Shown here: positions 5,570-34,790 of the stretch, piece by piece | Numbering within the stretch: position 1 is the stretch's first letter | Layout: each line of letters starts with the position of its first letter | Position numbers and translations under genes: made by a program | Notes under the pieces: generated by a model | Seen by the model: only the letters and a program-made list of their open reading frames with translations | Told to the model about the DNA's origin: nothing | Database searches by the model: none | Assembly: GCA_963714725.1 (NCBI GenBank) | Contig: CAVQPF010000015.1 | Span: 50,213 to 114,212 of the forward strand | DNA length: 64,000 bases | Direction of reading: 5' to 3' | From: Candidatus Bathyarchaeota archaeon | Lineage (GTDB): Archaea > Thermoproteota > Bathyarchaeia > Bathyarchaeales > Bathycorpusculaceae

Positions 5570-7982
5570 GCAAATCCAACAATGAACTAATTTTGTGGTT
5601 TGACAAAGTACGAAACACTGATGTTCCTATTGTTGGAGGAAAAAACGCGAGTTTAGGAGAAATGATAAACGCTGGAATGCCTGTTCCACCAGGGTTTGCA
5701 ATTACTGCCTATGCCTATGAAAAATTTATAAAAAAAACCAAAATTAGTGTATCTATCTATAAAATAATTCAAGAAACTATAACAGATCTCGAAGATCCAA
5801 AACAATATGATTCTGCTTCCAAAGAAATCCGCAAACTAATTGAAAAAACAAAAGTCCCAAAAGACATTGTAATCTCAATTAAATCCGCTTACGAAAAACT
5901 CAATAAACAACTAAAAACCAAAAACTCTTTTGTAGCTGTTCGTTCAAGTGCAACAGCTGAAGATCTTCCTGATGCCTCTTTTGCTGGCCAGCAAGATACT
6001 TATTTGGATGTTAAAGGTTTCGATGATCTTCTTGACAAAGTTGTTCATTGTTGGTCGAGTTTGTTTACGCCTCGTGCTATTTTTTATCGTAATGAAAAAG
6101 GCTTTGATCATGATAAGGTTTTCATTAGCGTTGGAGTTCAAAAAATGGTTAATTCACGAGCTGCAGGAGTAATGTTCTCAATAAATCCTGTTACAGGTGT
6201 TAAAAACGAAATCGTTATTGAAGGCAACTATGGTTTGGGAGAAACCGTTGTTTCGGGCATAGTCAATCCTGATGACTTTATACTAGATAAAGAAACTTTG
6301 GAAATAAAAGAAAGACGTCTTGCCCGAAAGACAATTCAGTATTTACGTGATCCTTCAACTGGGAAAACTCTTCATCTAGATGTGCCTGAAAAAAAACAGA
6401 AGGAACCTTGTGTAAATGATGAAGAACTCAACAAGTTGGGCTCTTTAGCTAAAATTATTGAAGATCATTATAACAAACCAATGGATATTGAATGGGCAAT
6501 CGATAAAGACTTGCCTTTTCCAAATAATATGTTTATAGTTCAAGCTCGTCCAGAAACTATATGGGGTGCTAAAGGAATGGAAGAAACATCACAAGATGAA
6601 GAAAAGAAATCTCTGAAGAATTAAAAGTGGTTGTAAAAGGAATTGCAGCTGGAAAAAGAGGATACGGTACAGGGAAAGCAAAAGTTGTTATAATCCTGAT
6701 GAAGCATCTGAAATGATGAAAGGAGACGTTCTCGTAACAGATATGACTAATCCTGATTTTGTACCATTTATGAAAATGGCAAGTGCAATAGTGACTGACA
6801 AAGGTGGAATCACTTCTCATGCAGCAATCGTCAGCCGTGAACTTACTATTCCTTGTGTTGTAGGTACAGAAACAGCCACTAAAGAATTAAAAACTGGAAA
6901 AGAATACACCGTTGACTCAAGAAACGGAGTTATTTACGAAGGTATCATGAAGCAAGCTAAAAATTCAACGACTCCTCAATCAAATATAATCTTTGCAGAT
7001 CCAGCTCCTGTTACTGCTACAAAAATATACATGAATTTAGGTGTACCTGAAAAGATAGAAGCTTATAAAAATATTCCATTCGAAGGCATCGGCTTAATGC
7101 GTACTGAATTCATTTTAGCCAGCACAATAGGTGAACATCCTTTAGCTTTGTTGAAAACGGAAAAAGCCAAGAATTTGTAGATAAAATGGCAGAAGCAATA
7201 GCAACTGTTGCACGAGCGATTCAGCCAAGACCAGTTGTAGTACGATTAAGCGATTTCAAAACAAACGAATACCGAGAATTAAAAGGCGGTAATAAATACG
7301 AAATTGTTGAAGAAAATCCAATGCTTGGTTGGAGAGGTTGTAGTCGATACATAAGCAAGTGGTATAACGAAGCTTTCAGACTTGAATGCCAAGCAATTAA
7401 AAAATGTCGAACTGAATGGGGTCTCAAAAATGTCTAGGTTATGCTTCCAATGGTTCGTACTCTCTGGGAAGCAAAAGCTGTCCTTCAAATCATGAAAGAA
7501 GAAGGTTTAGAGCGTAACAAAGACTTCAAAGTTTGGTTTATGGCTGAAACACCATCAATCGGAATTATGGCAGACGAATTTTCAAAACTTGTTGATGGTT
7601 TTAGTATAGGTTCAAACGACATGACCCAAGGAGTTCTGATGATTGATCGCGACTCTGAGCGTTTAGGTCAAATGGGATACTTCGACGAACGAGACCCAGC
7701 AGTTAAACGCATTATTGCTCACCTTATTAAAGCTGCCCACGAAAACGGTTGCACAGTTACAATCTGCGGTGAGGGTCCATCAAATCTTCCTGACTTCGCA
7801 GAATTCCTGGTTCGAGTTGGAATTGACAGTATATCCGTTAATAACGACGCTGTAGTAACGACCAAAAACACGTTGCAAGCGTAGAACAGAAAATAATCCT
7901 TGAACGTCTTGCTGAACAATCAAAAATACTTCGTTGTTATACTGAAAAAAAATCAAAAATCAATAATGATTTTGAGTTATAA
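5566..7982 (+). pseudogene. ppsA: Phosphoenolpyruvate synthase (ppsA), disrupted by four -1 frameshifts and one in-frame TAG
   Basis: PEP-synthase N-terminal ATP-grasp domain ('VGGKNASLGEM'), phospho-His domain ('GGITSHAAIVSREL') and C-terminal PEP-utilising domain are spread over frames mod1, mod0, mod2, mod1, mod0. Frame switches are near 6612, 6690, 7155 and 7880. A TAG at 7435-7437 sits where Trp is conserved ('GLKNV*VMLP'). The true C-terminus '[17 protein letters not shown]...' ends with TAA at 7980-7982. TTG start overlaps the L10e stop. Confidence 0.7.
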
Positions 7983-8038
7983 CTACTTTAATTTCTCTTC
8001 TAATCTTTTTTATAGGGTTTCTTAGTTCTATTAAAACA

Positions 8039-9047
8039 GTGAATATTATGAAGGCCTTTGATTTTGAAGAAGCAAAAATACTTGCAGAAATAATTACCCG
8101 AGCTCCAAAACGTGTTTTGCTTCAACTACCTGAAGGCCTAAAATCGGAAGCTCCTAATATATCTAAAATTATTGAAAAAGCAGGTGTCCTTCCCATAATA
8201 TCAGGTGATCCTTGCTATGGGGCTTGTGATTTACCTGAAGCTGAAGTGGAACGGTTCGATATTGATCTTATACTTCACTTTGGACACTCAAAAATGATAA
8301 AAAACGAAAAAGTTTCAACAATCTATGTTGCGGTCAAATCAACTGCTAAAATAACTAAGACTATGGAAAATTCTCTTCGACTTTTAAAAGATTATACCAA
8401 AATTGGATTAGTTACCACAATTCAACATCTTCAGACTCTAAAATCGTTCAAGATCTTCTTACAAATGCTGGAAAAACAGTTTTTATCGGAAATTCAGATC
8501 AAATGCTATGCAGGGGCAAGTTACTGGTTGCAATTATAGCAACGTTAAATGTATCTCGGATAAAGTTGAAGTTTTTCTTTTTATTGGAGGGGGTAACTTT
8601 CATGCATTAGGTGTAGCTCTAAATACAACTAAACCAACTATTCAAGTAAATCCTTTTAATCAAAAAGTCAATTTGTTAAACCTTAAAGTGAATAAATTAC
8701 TTCAAAAACACTGGGATTTAATCCAAAAAGCAAAAAAAGCTAAAAACTTTGGAATATTCGTCAGTTTAAAACCTGGACAAGAAAATTTTAAAAATGCACT
8801 AAAAATTAAAAAAATAATCGAAAAAATAGGCAACTGTGCAGTAATCATTCTTGTTAGAGAAATATTGCCAGAAGTTTTAATGCAATTTCCAACTATTGAT
8901 GCTTACGTTAACACAGCCTGTCCTAGAATTTCTTTTGACGATCCATTGAAATTCTTACGGCCTGTTTTATCAATTAATGAATTTAAGGTGCTTTCTGGTG
9001 AATGCTCATGGGAAGAAATTATCAAGATCGGATTATTCGAAAAATAG
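8039..9047 (+). pseudogene. dph2: Diphthamide synthesis enzyme Dph2, disrupted by two -1 frameshifts
   Basis: Aligns with the archaeal Dph2 pattern ('LPEGL', 'GLVTTIQHLQTLK', 'GKTVFIGNSDQ', 'GQVTGCNYS', 'FIGGGNFHALG', 'VNTACPRI'). The reading frame moves mod2, mod1, mod0, with frame switches at ~8466 and ~8495-8510. Confidence 0.65.
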
Positions 9048-9055
9048 ATTTAGAG

Positions 9056-9709
9056 ATGTTCCTAAGTGATATTGTTCCTCATCCTTTTCCTCAAGCTCAT
9101 CTTGAACAGTATACTACAACAGAACCTATTGCTGCGACATTATTGTTTCTAGCTTCCTACTCAAATAGTGATATTATTGGAAAAACTGTAATAGATCTAG
9201 GTTGTGGTACAGGCCGATTAGCTATTGGCGCCTCTTTTTTAGGCGCTAAATATGTTGTTGGTATTGACATTGATAAAGTTGCGATAAAAACTGCTAAGGA
9301 AACTGCTAAACGGTTAAAAATTAACAAAAATATTAATTGGATAATTGGGGATATTTCTGTTATTATTGGTCATTTTAATACTGTTCTGCAGAATCCTCCA
9401 TTTGGGATTCAAAAGCGAAATGCTGATCGAGAATTCTTAAAAAAAGCTTTAGAAATAGGCAATATAGTATATTCTATTCATAGTCATCCTTCAGTGGATA
9501 AAAGGTTAATACAACGTTTTGGGAAATCTTCAAGTAATTTAATTAGAGTTCGTCCCTCTCGTTTTCTTCAAAAATATATAATAAAACACGATGGTCACAT
9601 AATAGCTGTTTATTCCATGTTGATGACAATTCCGAAAATGTTTAATTTTCATAAAAAAAATAAACACTCATTTCTCATTGATTTATATTGGATTGAAAAA
9701 ACGCAATAA
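9056..9709 (+). CDS. COG2263-family RNA methyltransferase (METTL5-like)
   Basis: 'LEQYTTTEPIA', 'DLGCGTGRLAIGA' and 'NPPFG' motifs. Probable start is an internal ATG of the ORF-track ORF 9002..9709. Confidence 0.55.
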   Translation: MFLSDIVPHPFPQAHLEQYTTTEPIAATLLFLASYSNSDIIGKTVIDLGCGTGRLAIGASFLGAKYVVGIDIDKVAIKTAKETAKRLKINKNINWIIGDISVIIGHFNTVLQNPPFGIQKRNADREFLKKALEIGNIVYSIHSHPSVDKRLIQRFGKSSSNLIRVRPSRFLQKYIIKHDGHIIAVYSMLMTIPKMFNFHKKNKHSFLIDLYWIEKTQ

Positions 9710-32531: not shown

Positions 32532-32632
32532 CTTCTCACTTTTTTAGCAAATTACCTTTTTTTTAAAAACCTTTAGTTTCACAATATCTGAAAACTTCTG
32601 TAAGTCTAAGTTAATTATTTGTTAGAATTGAT

Positions 32633-32960
32633 CAAAAAACAAAAGCAAGACCCCTATTTTTTTGAGGATTCCCCTTAAAAAGGCCTATCTGCCCTTTTTT
32701 TATTGAATATATATTTCCATTTTCTTTTAGTTGACCAGCTTGTCCCTTTTTTATCGAATATATATTGCCGTTTTCTCGAGTAATACCCAACATACCATTT
32801 TTTACAGAATATATATTTCCACTATCATGAATAATGCCTATTACTTCTTTATTTAATGATAAAACATAACCATTTTTCTTTATAACTCCAAGAAGGAGAC
32901 CATTTCTAGTAATTACGCCTTTTTATCTACTTCAATAATTCCCAAAGTCAAGTTGTACCC
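32633..32960 (-). pseudogene. Decayed repeat-protein gene (tandem ~19-aa 'NGNIYSIKKGQ' repeats), frameshifted and startless
   Basis: The minus strand translates as '...ITRNGLLLGVIKKNGYVLSLNKEVIGIIHDS' then, after a frameshift, 'GNIYSVKNGMLGITRENGNIYSIKKGQAGQLKENGNIYSIKKGQIGLFKGNP'. No intact ORF longer than 60 aa. Confidence 0.35.
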
Positions 32961-33032
32961 ATCTAATAAATTAAAAACACAAAATAGTTTTAACGTTATG
33001 CTAAATTTTGCTGTTAAATTTTTCAATTAAAC

Positions 33033-33215
33033 TCATGCATTTTGGTTCTCTACACATAGACTACTATTTTTAAGTTTGAGCAGAGTGTTTACTATTTTGC
33101 CTTTCACTTGGGGTGAGGGTGCTAATCTAGTAGTTTGGGCCCGTAGTCTAGTACGGACCGTTTGTTTTCTGGAGACATCTCCCGCGTATCCCCCTCTTTT
33201 TAGAATATGAACCAA
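33033..33215 (-). CDS. Integrase N-terminal fragment (int(N)) of SSV-type partitioned integrase
   Basis: 60-aa ORF (TTG start). Residues 'RTRLRAQTTRLAPSPQVKGKIVNTLLKLKNS' are identical to the N-terminus of the integrase at 33803..34729. Spans the left direct repeat. Confidence 0.5.
   Translation of the reverse strand: MVHILKRGGYAGDVSRKQTVRTRLRAQTTRLAPSPQVKGKIVNTLLKLKNSSLCVENQNA
33063..33157. repeat. Left 95-bp direct repeat (attL)
   Basis: 33063-33157 is identical to 34595-34689 ('ACTATTTTTAAGTTTGAG...GGGCCCGTAGTCTAGTACGGA'). Contains the tRNA-Arg 5' 21 nt plus 74 bp of upstream sequence. Confidence 0.75.
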
Positions 33216-33498
33216 AAACTAAACTGTGATCTCTTTTTTTGTTTTCTCAGTTTAAACAGAATTTTGAGCTTGGTTTGTTTTGGATCTATCTCCTCTACAA
33301 TTAGTATAAGTATCCCACCTTAAAAGATGTCTCTGTAAAGTTAGGAGTATGAAAAAATTGGATTTTTTTTGTTTGGAGTAATTATTCTATTAAGCTTTTT
33401 TCTGCACTCAGAAAACGATGGCCCGATATGAGTTTATGTGATTAGAATGGATCAGTAAATATTTAATCGAGTTTCGACATTACTTATATACGGAGGTT

Positions 33499-33699
33499 TT
33501 GTTTTTGGAATATTGTTTAGATTGTGACGTGCCAATATCCACAACGCAACCAGCTAAAGTTTGGTTCTGTAATAATTGTAATAAAATTCTTCGGAGTGAT
33601 CAATTATTTAGATTACTAAATGAATTGAATATTAGTCAACAGAACATTGAAAATATTAAAACCGAACTTTGGAATAGGCAAGTGGCTATAGCTTTGTGA
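33499..33699 (+). CDS. Small zinc-ribbon protein carried by the integrated element
   Basis: 66 aa, TTG start preceded by GGAGG. 'CLDCD...CNNCNK' C4 arrangement. Confidence 0.3.
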   Translation: MFLEYCLDCDVPISTTQPAKVWFCNNCNKILRSDQLFRLLNELNISQQNIENIKTELWNRQVAIAL

Positions 33700-33802
33700 T
33701 TATGCTTATTTTTAAAACCCGAAAAATCTCATAATACAAAATAATATGTGAAAAAATGGGTTTTAAAATATCTGTTTGCGTTTTTTGAAAAGTTTGACTT
33801 CA

Positions 33803-34729
33803 TCAAACTCTGAAATACTCAAAACCCTGTTCTACAAGCTTTTTTGCTTCATCAACTGTTTTTGCTGTTGAACTATGATATTCTTCTGCTCCAAAATCTA
33901 TGTACTGCAAATAAAACAATGCTGTTTCAAGTTTTTTCCAGCATAGTTTTTGTTTTTTAAACGAAACATCTTTAGTTTGATTATACGTTTTGCAAGCTTG
34001 ATAATGTCTCAGATTGTAGAGTCTAATCGTGAGTAAACTTCGATCATTAAGTTTTTTGCTTTGTCTTTTTTTGTATTTTACCCATGATTTTGTCATCCAC
34101 TTCGACTCGGGGAAAGGACAATTCTTTTCACCGATTTTCGATAGATAAACTTGAAGCATTGCAGAAGTTTTATTTTTCAACTTAATTGTTCTGCTTGAGT
34201 GTCCTTTTCTGCCTCTTATCGAGATTGTCTCTCTATCAAAGTCGATATCTCGTAATGTAACTCTACTAAGCTCTATTGGCATAGCACCAGTTTCTTTGAG
34301 AAGCGTGAAGATTACCTTGTATTTCCATCCACATGAAAGAATTATCTTGTTCAAAATCTCTTCAGAAGGAATACGTGGTTTATTTTGTTCCCATCTGTAT
34401 TTTGGTCGTTCCCAAACCATGTTGTTGATTAAAGTATAGTAGTTGTAAGCTTTGACGAGATTTCCTTTAAAACCATTGTTTACATTCTTGTTTGCGCTGA
34501 ACTCTTTAACACTATCAGGTTCAGACAAATCAGAATTAACAGCAAGATGTCTGAGATAAAATCCTAAAATCTTAAAAGTCTGTTCTTGTAGACCACTATT
34601 TTTAAGTTTGAGCAGAGTGTTTACTATTTTGCCTTTCACTTGGGGTGAGGGTGCTAATCTAGTAGTTTGGGCCCGTAGTCTAGTACGGATTATGACACTG
34701 GCCTGCGGAGCCGGAGATCCTGGGTTCAA
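33803..34729 (-). CDS. int: Tyrosine recombinase/integrase, SSV-type (catalytic int(C) part, extended N-terminally through attR and antisense tRNA-Arg)
   Basis: Catalytic-box-like 'RGRKGHSSRTIKL' (Arg), 'LYNLRHYQA' (H-x-x-R) and C-terminal Tyr region. The first ~14 codons are antisense to tRNA-Arg outside the repeat. An alternative GTG start ('VKGKIVN...') lies within the repeat. Confidence 0.65.
   Translation of the reverse strand: MNPGSPAPQASVIIRTRLRAQTTRLAPSPQVKGKIVNTLLKLKNSGLQEQTFKILGFYLRHLAVNSDLSEPDSVKEFSANKNVNNGFKGNLVKAYNYYTLINNMVWERPKYRWEQNKPRIPSEEILNKIILSCGWKYKVIFTLLKETGAMPIELSRVTLRDIDFDRETISIRGRKGHSSRTIKLKNKTSAMLQVYLSKIGEKNCPFPESKWMTKSWVKYKKRQSKKLNDRSLLTIRLYNLRHYQACKTYNQTKDVSFKKQKLCWKKLETALFYLQYIDFGAEEYHSSTAKTVDEAKKLVEQGFEYFRV
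34595..34689. repeat. Right 95-bp direct repeat (attR), overlapping the 5' end of tRNA-Arg
   Basis: Identical to 33063-33157. 34669-34689 is the tRNA-Arg 5' acceptor/D region. Confidence 0.75.
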
Positions 34730-34744
34730 ATCCCAGCGGGCCCA
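34669..34744 (+). tRNA. tRNA-Arg (anticodon GCG)
   Basis: 76 nt. Acceptor 'GGGCCCG/CGGGCCC', anticodon stem-loop 'CTGGC-CTGCGGA-GCCGG', T-arm 'CTGGGTTCAAATCCCAG', discriminator A, no encoded CCA. D-loop is slightly long ('AGTACGGATTA'). Confidence 0.7.
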
Positions 34745-34790
34745 CTAACATTTTTAAATAAATTCTTAACCTTTTATTTACAAGTAGAAT

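Follow-up and report, generated by a model that had tools for sequence, protein, structure and literature searches.

A probable cryptic integrated element of very small size, with an XerA-like integrase, at a tRNA-Arg 5' end in Bathyarchaeia

What entered the 5' end of a tRNA-Arg gene in the genome of Candidatus Bathyarchaeota archaeon, and was its integrase gene (int) cut in two on entry? The locus lies in a stretch of 64,000 nucleotides (nt) with a GC content of 33% (contig CAVQPF010000015.1, positions 50,213 to 114,212), which we analysed whole and refer to as the window; coordinates count from its first letter. The initial annotation had recorded two perfect 95-bp direct repeats, and both were found by repeat search, at 33063-33157 and 34595-34689. 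They form the core of a 101-nt repeat (33057-33157 and 34589-34689) with a single mismatch at its edge, 33062 versus 34594. A perfect repeat of 95 nt cannot be a chance occurrence in 64 kb, and the window contains no further copy of the repeat or the element. Placement of the tRNA using ARAGORN bore out that the repeat covers tRNA nt 1-21 and 74 nt upstream (80 nt with the 101-nt extension). The three open reading frames (ORFs) were also as described: 308 amino acids (aa) at 33803..34729 and 60 aa at 33033..33215, both on the minus strand, and 66 aa at 33499..33699 on the plus strand. The repeats enclose 1.43 kb, giving a unit length of 1,532 bp. We think it likely that this is a cryptic integrated element of very small size, a degenerate member of a family that is common in Bathyarchaeia, with the extra length of its repeat derived from the stub of an integrase gene.

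We first consider what kind of integrase the 308-aa ORF encodes. It matched PF00589 (E 3.4e-8; 33.9 bits against a gathering cut-off of 27.1 bits) and PHROG integrase families, and its best match in the PDB was Pyrococcus XerA (4a8e). A profile of its family found the same XerA structure with E 6.5e-26, along with IntI4, XerD and XerH. An AlphaFold2 model of P0002, a homologue that is 85% identical to the window integrase (pLDDT 91.3), matched XerA best in Foldseek with a probability of 1.00, followed by IntI4, Tn1549 Int and XerH; lambda Int and Cre were among its best 50 matches. SSV1 Int was absent from the PDB profile matches at E<=10 and from the 50 fold matches listed. All 52 family members matched PF00589 and none matched PF16795 (E<=0.1). 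Box II reads YNLRH in the window and YDLRH in the family, that is, YxxR and not KxxR, and the tyrosine nucleophile is present (LFYLQ). Searches of the integrase by tblastn returned no match among 50,697 phage records and, among plasmids, only bacterial integrases (~24%). The suicidal integrases of SSV, pTN3 and pT26-2 have a PF16795 domain, a KxxR box II and an attachment site (attP) inside the ORF, and classical integrases of the pNOB8 type have YxxR and leave int intact (PMC8371274). By sequence, the window integrase is thus placed with the classical, non-suicidal, PF00589/XerA-like enzymes. The SSV-type assignment made in the initial annotation is contradicted by the PF16795 count, the YxxR box, the lack of fusellovirus similarity and the best match to XerA by both sequence and fold. 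Identity with chromosomal XerA, a single-copy enzyme that resolves dimers at dif, was also rejected: several metagenome-assembled genomes (MAGs) carry multiple copies of the family (for example, JBGQMW01 and CAVTAO01), and family copies adjoin tRNA genes and are flanked by repeats.

The family gives the locus its context. The window integrase has 70 protein homologues in the protein collection and 131 genomic relatives in species-representative genomes, from which we kept 77 loci, nearly all titled Bathyarchaeia or Bathyarchaeota. At each locus we looked for repeated copies of the 300 nt that surround the start of int, with 10-kb flanks setting the upper limit on size. A direct repeat of 24-95 nt was found at 23 loci; its int-proximal copy lies about -60 to -20 nt from the conserved 'KGK' codon, and the second copy is found 1.8-10.2 kb downstream (median, 5.75 kb). 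The usual attachment site (att) of the family is 24-47 nt long and directly precedes int, as a rule with 10-30 nt between its end and the start codon; long repeats occur in a few relatives (75 nt in L012 and 95 nt in L053). Tandem integrase genes are spaced 2.4-5.2 kb apart at L003/L078, L011, L034, L039 and L051, and L049 has three att copies. Cargo is heterogeneous, consisting of RidA-like proteins, secreted or membrane proteins and small ORFs, and the family elements inspected yielded no genes for replication or virions. The integrase of the closest relative that is well resolved, L001, is 72% identical to that of the window, and its element occupies tRNA-Arg(GCG) with the same boundary on the tRNA side; the L001 att is 24 nt long (tRNA nt 1-21 and 3 nt more), and the 3,965-bp element encodes the integrase, a RidA-like protein and a 772-aa secreted protein.

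The window locus is a bona fide site-specific insertion of this integrase family, and the view that a tyrosine-recombinase element has integrated at the 5' end of the tRNA-Arg gene is supported. Its unusual smallness also held, as 1,532 bp is the smallest size seen in the integrase family. The term 'integron-like' found no support, as arrays in this family are whole units of int and cargo at a tRNA and not cassettes behind one integrase, and IntI4 is only a generic fold neighbour; no search for attC was made. Such small 'integrase plus cargo' elements are common in Bathyarchaeia and apparently undescribed, and the literature that we searched contained no description of them in this group. The window locus in itself matters little, being small and probably dead; it exposes abundant tiny elements of this kind in a sediment lineage of global importance.

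Where does the integrase protein begin? Codons 1-30 of the 308-aa ORF do not encode protein: they consist of antisense tRNA and spacer. In most homologues, int stands head-to-head with a tRNA gene and gene callers run the ORF through it, so that the family alignment acquires a spurious conserved N terminus: 'NPGSPAPQASVLIQTRLRA' is the antisense translation of the tRNA. Protein-like conservation opens at 'KGKIxNTLLKLKNxGL' in the family and at 'VKGKIVNTLLKLKN' (GTG 34639) in the window. An ATG or GTG is found at the equivalent position in L001, L012, L025, L037, L040, L053, L055 and L059. L053 has an in-frame stop inside att, the int ORF of L061 opens only beyond att, and helix 1 of the AlphaFold2 model begins at residue 2 of P0002, the N terminus of which is VKGK. 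From these alignments and the model we infer that int starts at GTG 34639-34637, inside the repeat. The conserved protein is contiguous from GTG 34639 to the stop, at attR. Crossover probably took place within tRNA nt ~1-21 (34669-34689); as translation would start downstream of this region, the gene is predicted to have remained unsplit, and we reject its partition upon integration.

The next question is why the repeat is so long. Beyond the usual att, it runs on through a 29-nt spacer and 17 int codons, an extra 77 nt made up of the 5' untranslated region and the beginning of int. All 80 nt that precede the tRNA show homology to the 5' end of int in elements located at tRNA-Pro, tRNA-Gly and tRNA-Arg. 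A metagenome search using the right-flank protein recovered syntenic loci (p225-p308-tRNA-Arg ... SPFH-p148). Three of these, L087, L094 and L090, are free of int and have a tRNA that is 92-100% identical over 75 nt, with the tRNA of the window being 100% identical to those of L087 and L094. Upstream of this tRNA, the three loci are unrelated to the window and have a canonical TATA near -35. These comparisons identify the 80 nt as element sequence and not host sequence, so attL is an int 5' stub joined to a tRNA 5' fragment. A locus of this kind exists in L085 (flank protein 83% identical), in which the tRNA-Arg and att are accompanied by only the first ~35-37 int codons and then by unrelated cargo. 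The distal end of L085 is 86% identical over 59 nt (33147-33205) to the int-distal end of the window element, which we call the X-end; the att shared between the two is only ~10 nt (CGTACTAGA). The likeliest reading of the left repeat is a stub that remained when a second copy of int was deleted. Throughout the nearest relatives, L083-L086, the tRNA-Arg site is taken by other elements, and the tRNA-Arg of the window lineage is an integration hot spot.

We propose the following history. An element of this family consists of a classical XerA-like YxxR integrase gene, an attP directly upstream of it and short, variable cargo behind it. The integrase of this subclade would target the D-arm region (nt ~1-21) of a tRNA gene for recombination, which would leave the start of the integrated int head-to-head with the tRNA 5' end and substitute the element's copy for the original tRNA 5' end and the promoter region before it. 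At the window locus, the element now provides the 5' 21 nt of the tRNA and all sequence upstream of them. Two near-identical copies would have stood in series at the tRNA, with the distal, older copy then deleted from codon 18 outward; by an equivalent route, the element may have entered a pre-existing stub by homologous or site-specific recombination. Given the frequent tandem arrays of the family, two steps, serial integration and then deletion of the distal copy, make the simplest history. As a result, attL would be fused to the 5' untranslated region and first 17 codons of a second int copy. The surviving copy, with one captured zinc (Zn)-ribbon gene and a frameshifted int, would be immobile unless a related integrase acted in trans.

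Several points weigh against this history. The start codon of int comes from comparison and modelling and not from measurement. The two repeat copies are identical at 95 of 95 positions, which requires that the deleted copy was nearly identical or that the copies were homogenized. In the block of ~50 nt at the X-end that is shared with L085, two of three substitutions are synonymous in the read-through frame, weakly hinting at coding there. The search for an empty tRNA-Arg site, which the initial annotation called for, found none in a truly close relative: syntenic int-free sites exist only in the distant relatives L087, L090 and L094 (flank protein 75-77% identical), and the closest relatives, L083 and L084 (92% nucleotide identity in the flank), are occupied by a different integrase. 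An exact 32-mer of the att and tRNA leader was unmatched in viral and metagenome contigs, which yielded neither an identical empty site nor the junction of the circular excised form that had been suggested. In addition, the frameshift in int could be an assembly or sequencing error in the MAG.

The 101 nt might instead be a genuinely long identity between attP and attB, such that the element carries the leader and promoter of the host tRNA and entered a virgin site once. An element that integrates into the 5' part of a tRNA gene has to bring a promoter, as pTN3-like elements do (PMC8371274); the repeat begins a few nucleotides before a TATA-like TATTTTTAAG; and the long repeats of L012 and L053 provide parallels. 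We nevertheless consider a long attB improbable, as the leftmost 51 nt code for helix 1 of the integrase, a conserved segment that is also present in elements at tRNA-Pro, tRNA-Gly and tRNA-Arg; int-free relatives have an unrelated native sequence upstream of this tRNA; and the att of the sister element L001, at the same site, is only 24 nt long. An assembly artefact, in which a free circle of 1.53 kb shares 101 nt with a chromosomal stub and tRNA and the loop was traversed once, also seems unlikely to us. The layout is that expected of true integration and matches many independent family loci, and retention of the edge mismatch argues against a collapsed repeat. These observations have to be set against a repeat length near typical k-mer sizes, a probable origin in metagenome assembly and the existence of stub-only chromosomes such as L085.

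We regard suicidal integration of the SSV type, the reading of the initial annotation, as very improbable. It would place attP within the ORF, with 33033..33215 as int(N) and 33803..34729 as int(C). In its favour, 17 conserved int codons do fall inside the repeat, one ORF reads from the X-end across attL, and P0010, which comes from a tandem array, has an ATG in frame across att with GGAGGT 9 nt upstream of it. Besides the missing PF16795 and KxxR signatures and the absence of fusellovirus similarity and of SSV1 Int among the PDB matches, the peptides themselves speak against a split. The 60-aa ORF does share 'RTRLRAQTTRLAPSPQVKGKIVNTLLKLKNS' with the integrase ORF, as had been noted, but the shared peptide is mostly antisense tRNA and spacer; the remainder of this ORF is made up of 20 unconserved residues, the 17 duplicated codons and read-through into the flank. 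The residues that were supposed to be specific to int(N) (MVHILKRGGYAGDVSRKQTV) are not conserved in P0010, the sole 'reconstituted' homologue, and are unrelated to its extension, which is of low complexity. Several homologues carry stops in or after att, and the entire conserved protein is contiguous at attR. The appearance of a split integrase is a product of ORF calling through an antisense tRNA together with a duplicated 5' stub, and 'suicidal' integrases should not be annotated from ORF geometry alone. Plain segmental duplication or rearrangement, which could appeal to a repeat longer than the usual att of the family and to a damaged-looking integrase, is barely credible, as one repeat boundary coincides with the L001 att boundary in the tRNA D-arm, the adjoining X-end is conserved in L085 and the att-int-cargo-att architecture recurs in ~23 loci.

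Is the surviving integrase still functional? As it stands, it has 278 aa compared with 289 aa in the intact homologue P0002. The C terminus of the family is almost invariant, '...GFEYVTxxDGVKLFRKRK' before the stop. The window frame breaks after 'GFEYF' and stops two codons on; three-frame translation of the -1 frame reads 'SEFDEVKLFKKRKQIF' and a stop, matching 'TEFDDVKLFRKRK' and a stop in the family, and the lost tail 'EFDEVKLFKKRK' was recovered in another frame. An indel of 1 or 2 nt near 33811-33815 is the apparent cause of the loss, and the original stop codon seems to be mutated as well. In the AlphaFold2 model, a beta-alpha-beta-beta mini-domain forms the C terminus, and the lost tail corresponds to its last two strands. 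At three positions with at least 92% conservation among the other sequences, the window integrase carries a substitution as well (I to S, D to N and G to C), whereas P0002 carries none. By the alignment and the model, the integrase is probably non-functional and the element defunct. The 3' frameshift is unrelated to integration, and int is otherwise whole after it. Of the two options that had been left open, a minimal element or a remnant, the remnant is the better description.

The subclade to which the window integrase belongs also departs from the canonical active site. It has a methionine at the position of the first catalytic arginine (Arg-I), aligned to R135 of XerA and to the arginine of Thermoplasma XerA, IntI4 and XerD; in the window this Met lies at ~34192-34190, within 'LLKETGAMP' (codons 34189-34215). 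Of the rest of the RKHRH pentad, the invariant Lys ('KGH'), Arg-II and Trp/His-III are present, as is the Tyr nucleophile, and His-II is replaced by Tyr. Among 92 copies in the fetched loci (L001-L086), the 60 more distant ones have R at the Arg-I position, another 20 have M and 10 have E, and the Glu group carries an Arg at the His-II position. Wherever a tRNA was detected, copies without Arg-I were head-to-head with tRNA 5' ends and R-type copies followed tRNA 3' ends. Good direct repeats around the window element, L010 and L012 suggest, at the level of sequence, that Met- and Glu-type integrases are active. A missing or shifted Arg-I has precedents in IntDOT and IntDes (PMC8138268). We tentatively raise the possibility, although we would not presume it, that the Met/Glu-type subclade is active with a remodelled site and drives non-replicative mini-elements of 1.5-10 kb in Bathyarchaeia, with the 1.53-kb unit close to the minimal mobile form. 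If so, mini-elements with one to three cargo genes would shuttle host genes and stack at tRNA 5' ends, bringing a replacement tRNA 5' end and promoter, and the switch from 3' to 5' targeting of tRNA genes would coincide with the loss of Arg-I. A clade that lacks Arg-I and yet has fresh-looking repeats is a testable natural variant of tyrosine-recombinase chemistry.

How does the element compare with known systems? The integrases of SSV1 and SSV2 are archaeal tyrosine recombinases like that of the window, and SSV1 also uses a tRNA-Arg gene. They differ in having PF16795 and KxxR; their att lies deep within the ORF and corresponds to the 3' half of the tRNA. Like the window element, the cryptic integrated elements of Thaumarchaeota are defined by an integrase, flanked by att, often targeted to tRNA genes and devoid of viral or plasmid hallmark genes, and tandem re-use of one site, as in the window family, has been noted for those with tyrosine recombinases (PMC6563490). 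The smallest of them, NitUzo-E2, has 2.6 kb and four genes (PMC6563490); the window element has 1.53 kb and two genes, and its host belongs to Bathyarchaeia. All but one of the thaumarchaeal elements are at tRNA 3' ends, with a median att of 17 bp (PMC6563490), whereas the window element is at a 5' end with a long att, and its integrase belongs to a different family with Met at Arg-I.

Among the classes described for archaea, pNOB8-type integrases share with the window integrase an int that is intact after integration, YxxR and PF00589 (PMC8371274). Their motif is R...YxxR...Y, of which the window has the YxxR and the Tyr, with Met at Arg-I; this comparison is by description, and the nearest solved relatives are XerA proteins. 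The pTN3-like elements also target the 5' half of a tRNA gene, and the recombinant tRNA relies on upstream sequence that is supplied by the element; they are suicidal, with PF16795 and attP inside the ORF (PMC8371274), in contrast to the classical, unsplit int of the window, which is divergent from the tRNA. The 5' targeting that had struck the initial annotation as unusual is indeed rare but was already known (PMC6563490, PMC8371274). A review terms it 'unique' to pTN3-like integrases among archaea (PMC8371274), and the window family would be a second case. What is new at the level of the family is a classical integrase that targets tRNA 5' ends and an element size of 1.5 kb. In IntDOT and IntDes, as in the window, the first Arg of RKHRH is gone, and in IntDes the first His has likewise become Tyr (PMC8138268). 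These enzymes are bacterial and have arm-binding domains, and in IntDOT a downstream Arg substitutes for Arg-I (PMC8138268); no such substitute was identified in the window integrase.

The features of the locus are collected in Table 1; a scan of the region with Rfam detected nothing besides the tRNA.

Table 1. Coordinates of the element, its repeats and its target in the window
Feature	Coordinates	Strand	Basis or detail
attL, left repeat copy	33057..33157	.	Repeat search; tblastn of int matches 33107..33057, 94% over 17 aa
attL part: stub, first 17 int codons	33057-33107	minus	GTG at 33107-33105
attL part: 29-nt spacer	33108-33136		
attL part: copy of tRNA-Arg 5' 21 nt	33137-33157		
X-end, int-distal end of the element	33158..33323	-	33158-33205 conserved in L085
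Cargo cassette with 64/66-aa CxxC...CxxC Zn-ribbon gene	33324..33769	+	ORF 33499..33699
Remnant of int 3' end, out of frame	33764..33813	-	Three-frame translation, family alignment, P0002 sequence
Tyrosine recombinase gene, likeliest extent	33803..34639	-	GTG 34639-34637; premature stop 33805-33803
attR, right repeat copy	34589..34689	.	First 17 int codons, 29-nt spacer and tRNA nt 1-21
tRNA-Arg(GCG), intact, integration target	34669..34745	+	ARAGORN; Rfam tRNA, 63.5 bits

The X-end carries a palindrome, GGAGAcaTCTCC, at 33171-33182 that recurs in L085 (9541-9552), and a TATA-like TTCTAAAAAG on the minus strand at 33195-33205. Together, the palindrome and the TATA-like motif adjoin att at the int-distal end in both the window and L085 (9520-9552), and the X-end may be a putative Int-binding site or a promoter reading across att. 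That integration cuts int off from such an X-end promoter was kept as a minor possibility only, as the motifs are confined to the window and L085 and there are none in L001. When compared with a set of 82 loci by BLAST and tblastx, the body of the X-end gave only matches of 23 nt and 32 nt (E 0.004), which we took as chance. A replacement promoter for the tRNA is known in principle from pTN3-like elements (PMC8371274). L001 and L002 have TTTATATT at about -40 in the spacer between int and tRNA, a sequence that is consistent with a built-in promoter of this kind. In the window and L085 the spacer is GC-rich, and the nearest TATA-like sequence is located further upstream, inside the 5' codons of int (TATTTTTAAG, 34592-34601); it is a candidate tRNA promoter element in the window.

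The only other gene of the element is the Zn-ribbon ORF of 64 aa, and viral or plasmid hallmark genes are absent from the element. The Zn-ribbon protein has seven homologues with 83-94% identity, which start at the second TTG, 33505; Pfam and PHROG searches of the ORF returned only sub-threshold Zn-ribbon matches. The cassette 33324-33769 (446 bp) is 86-90% identical to L159 4108-4429, L160 1-521 and L161 1619-2122, all of which lack int and have unrelated neighbours (a PQQ-repeat protein; transcription factor B (TFB) and tRNA-Gln); in one of the three, the cassette lies 275 nt from tRNA-Gln. Homology ends within a few nucleotides of the expected stop codon of the family int. From these matches the cassette is best read as captured cargo or a small dispersed module, and we found no evidence that the Zn-ribbon protein acts as an excisionase.

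Several further observations concern the surroundings of the element and its relatives. The left flank contains a frameshifted minus-strand ORF at 32630-32940 that encodes ~17-aa repeats (GNIYSIKKGQxG...), corresponding to three 51-nt DNA repeats. BLAST and tblastx of 32532-33056 against the same 82 loci found no match, so the left flank is not recognizable as decayed int. An exact-sequence look-up of the window integrase and both flanking proteins matched no record. Kinship between the 308-aa proteins that adjoin int in the window and in L078 was considered and rejected; they are unrelated and their equal length is a coincidence.

Other occupants of the same tRNA were also seen. L083 (1321-1863), L084 (9048-9889) and L086 (3261-3900) have a different integrase (34% identical) at the 5' end of this tRNA-Arg; it is oriented with its 3' end towards the tRNA, and at -25 to -10 there is a sequence, CCGTAGTCCA, that forms a pseudo-copy of the 5' end of the tRNA. 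In the L085 element (5756-9576), the cargo is on the strand opposite to the int stub and includes ORFs of 81 aa with a CPLC motif, of 286 aa and 169 aa without annotation, and of 316 aa, the last resembling a PLP-dependent dehydratase as judged by eye.

Further afield, IMG/VR held only one full-length relative, which is distant (32% identity; a 429-aa ORF, L162 9602-10891), and gave no sign that the close subclade is viral. It is part of a 33.8-kb UViG in which the integrase is beside ParB-like, DNA methyltransferase and polymerase-like genes, showing from this context that distant family members also occur on larger elements. The contig of L002 (MFNH01000048.1), which combines a 69%-identical integrase with an archaeal-type tRNA-Arg, is filed under a MAG of Candidatus Levybacteria, a bacterium, and this assignment is probably a binning error. 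Finally, the tRNA-Arg region of L078 (5689-5834), also present in L003, contains several partial copies of the tRNA 5' part; ARAGORN called a 73-nt tRNA without the GGGCCCG 5' end, which is found 57 nt further on, and the region could represent stacked att scars or an unusual intron or disruption.

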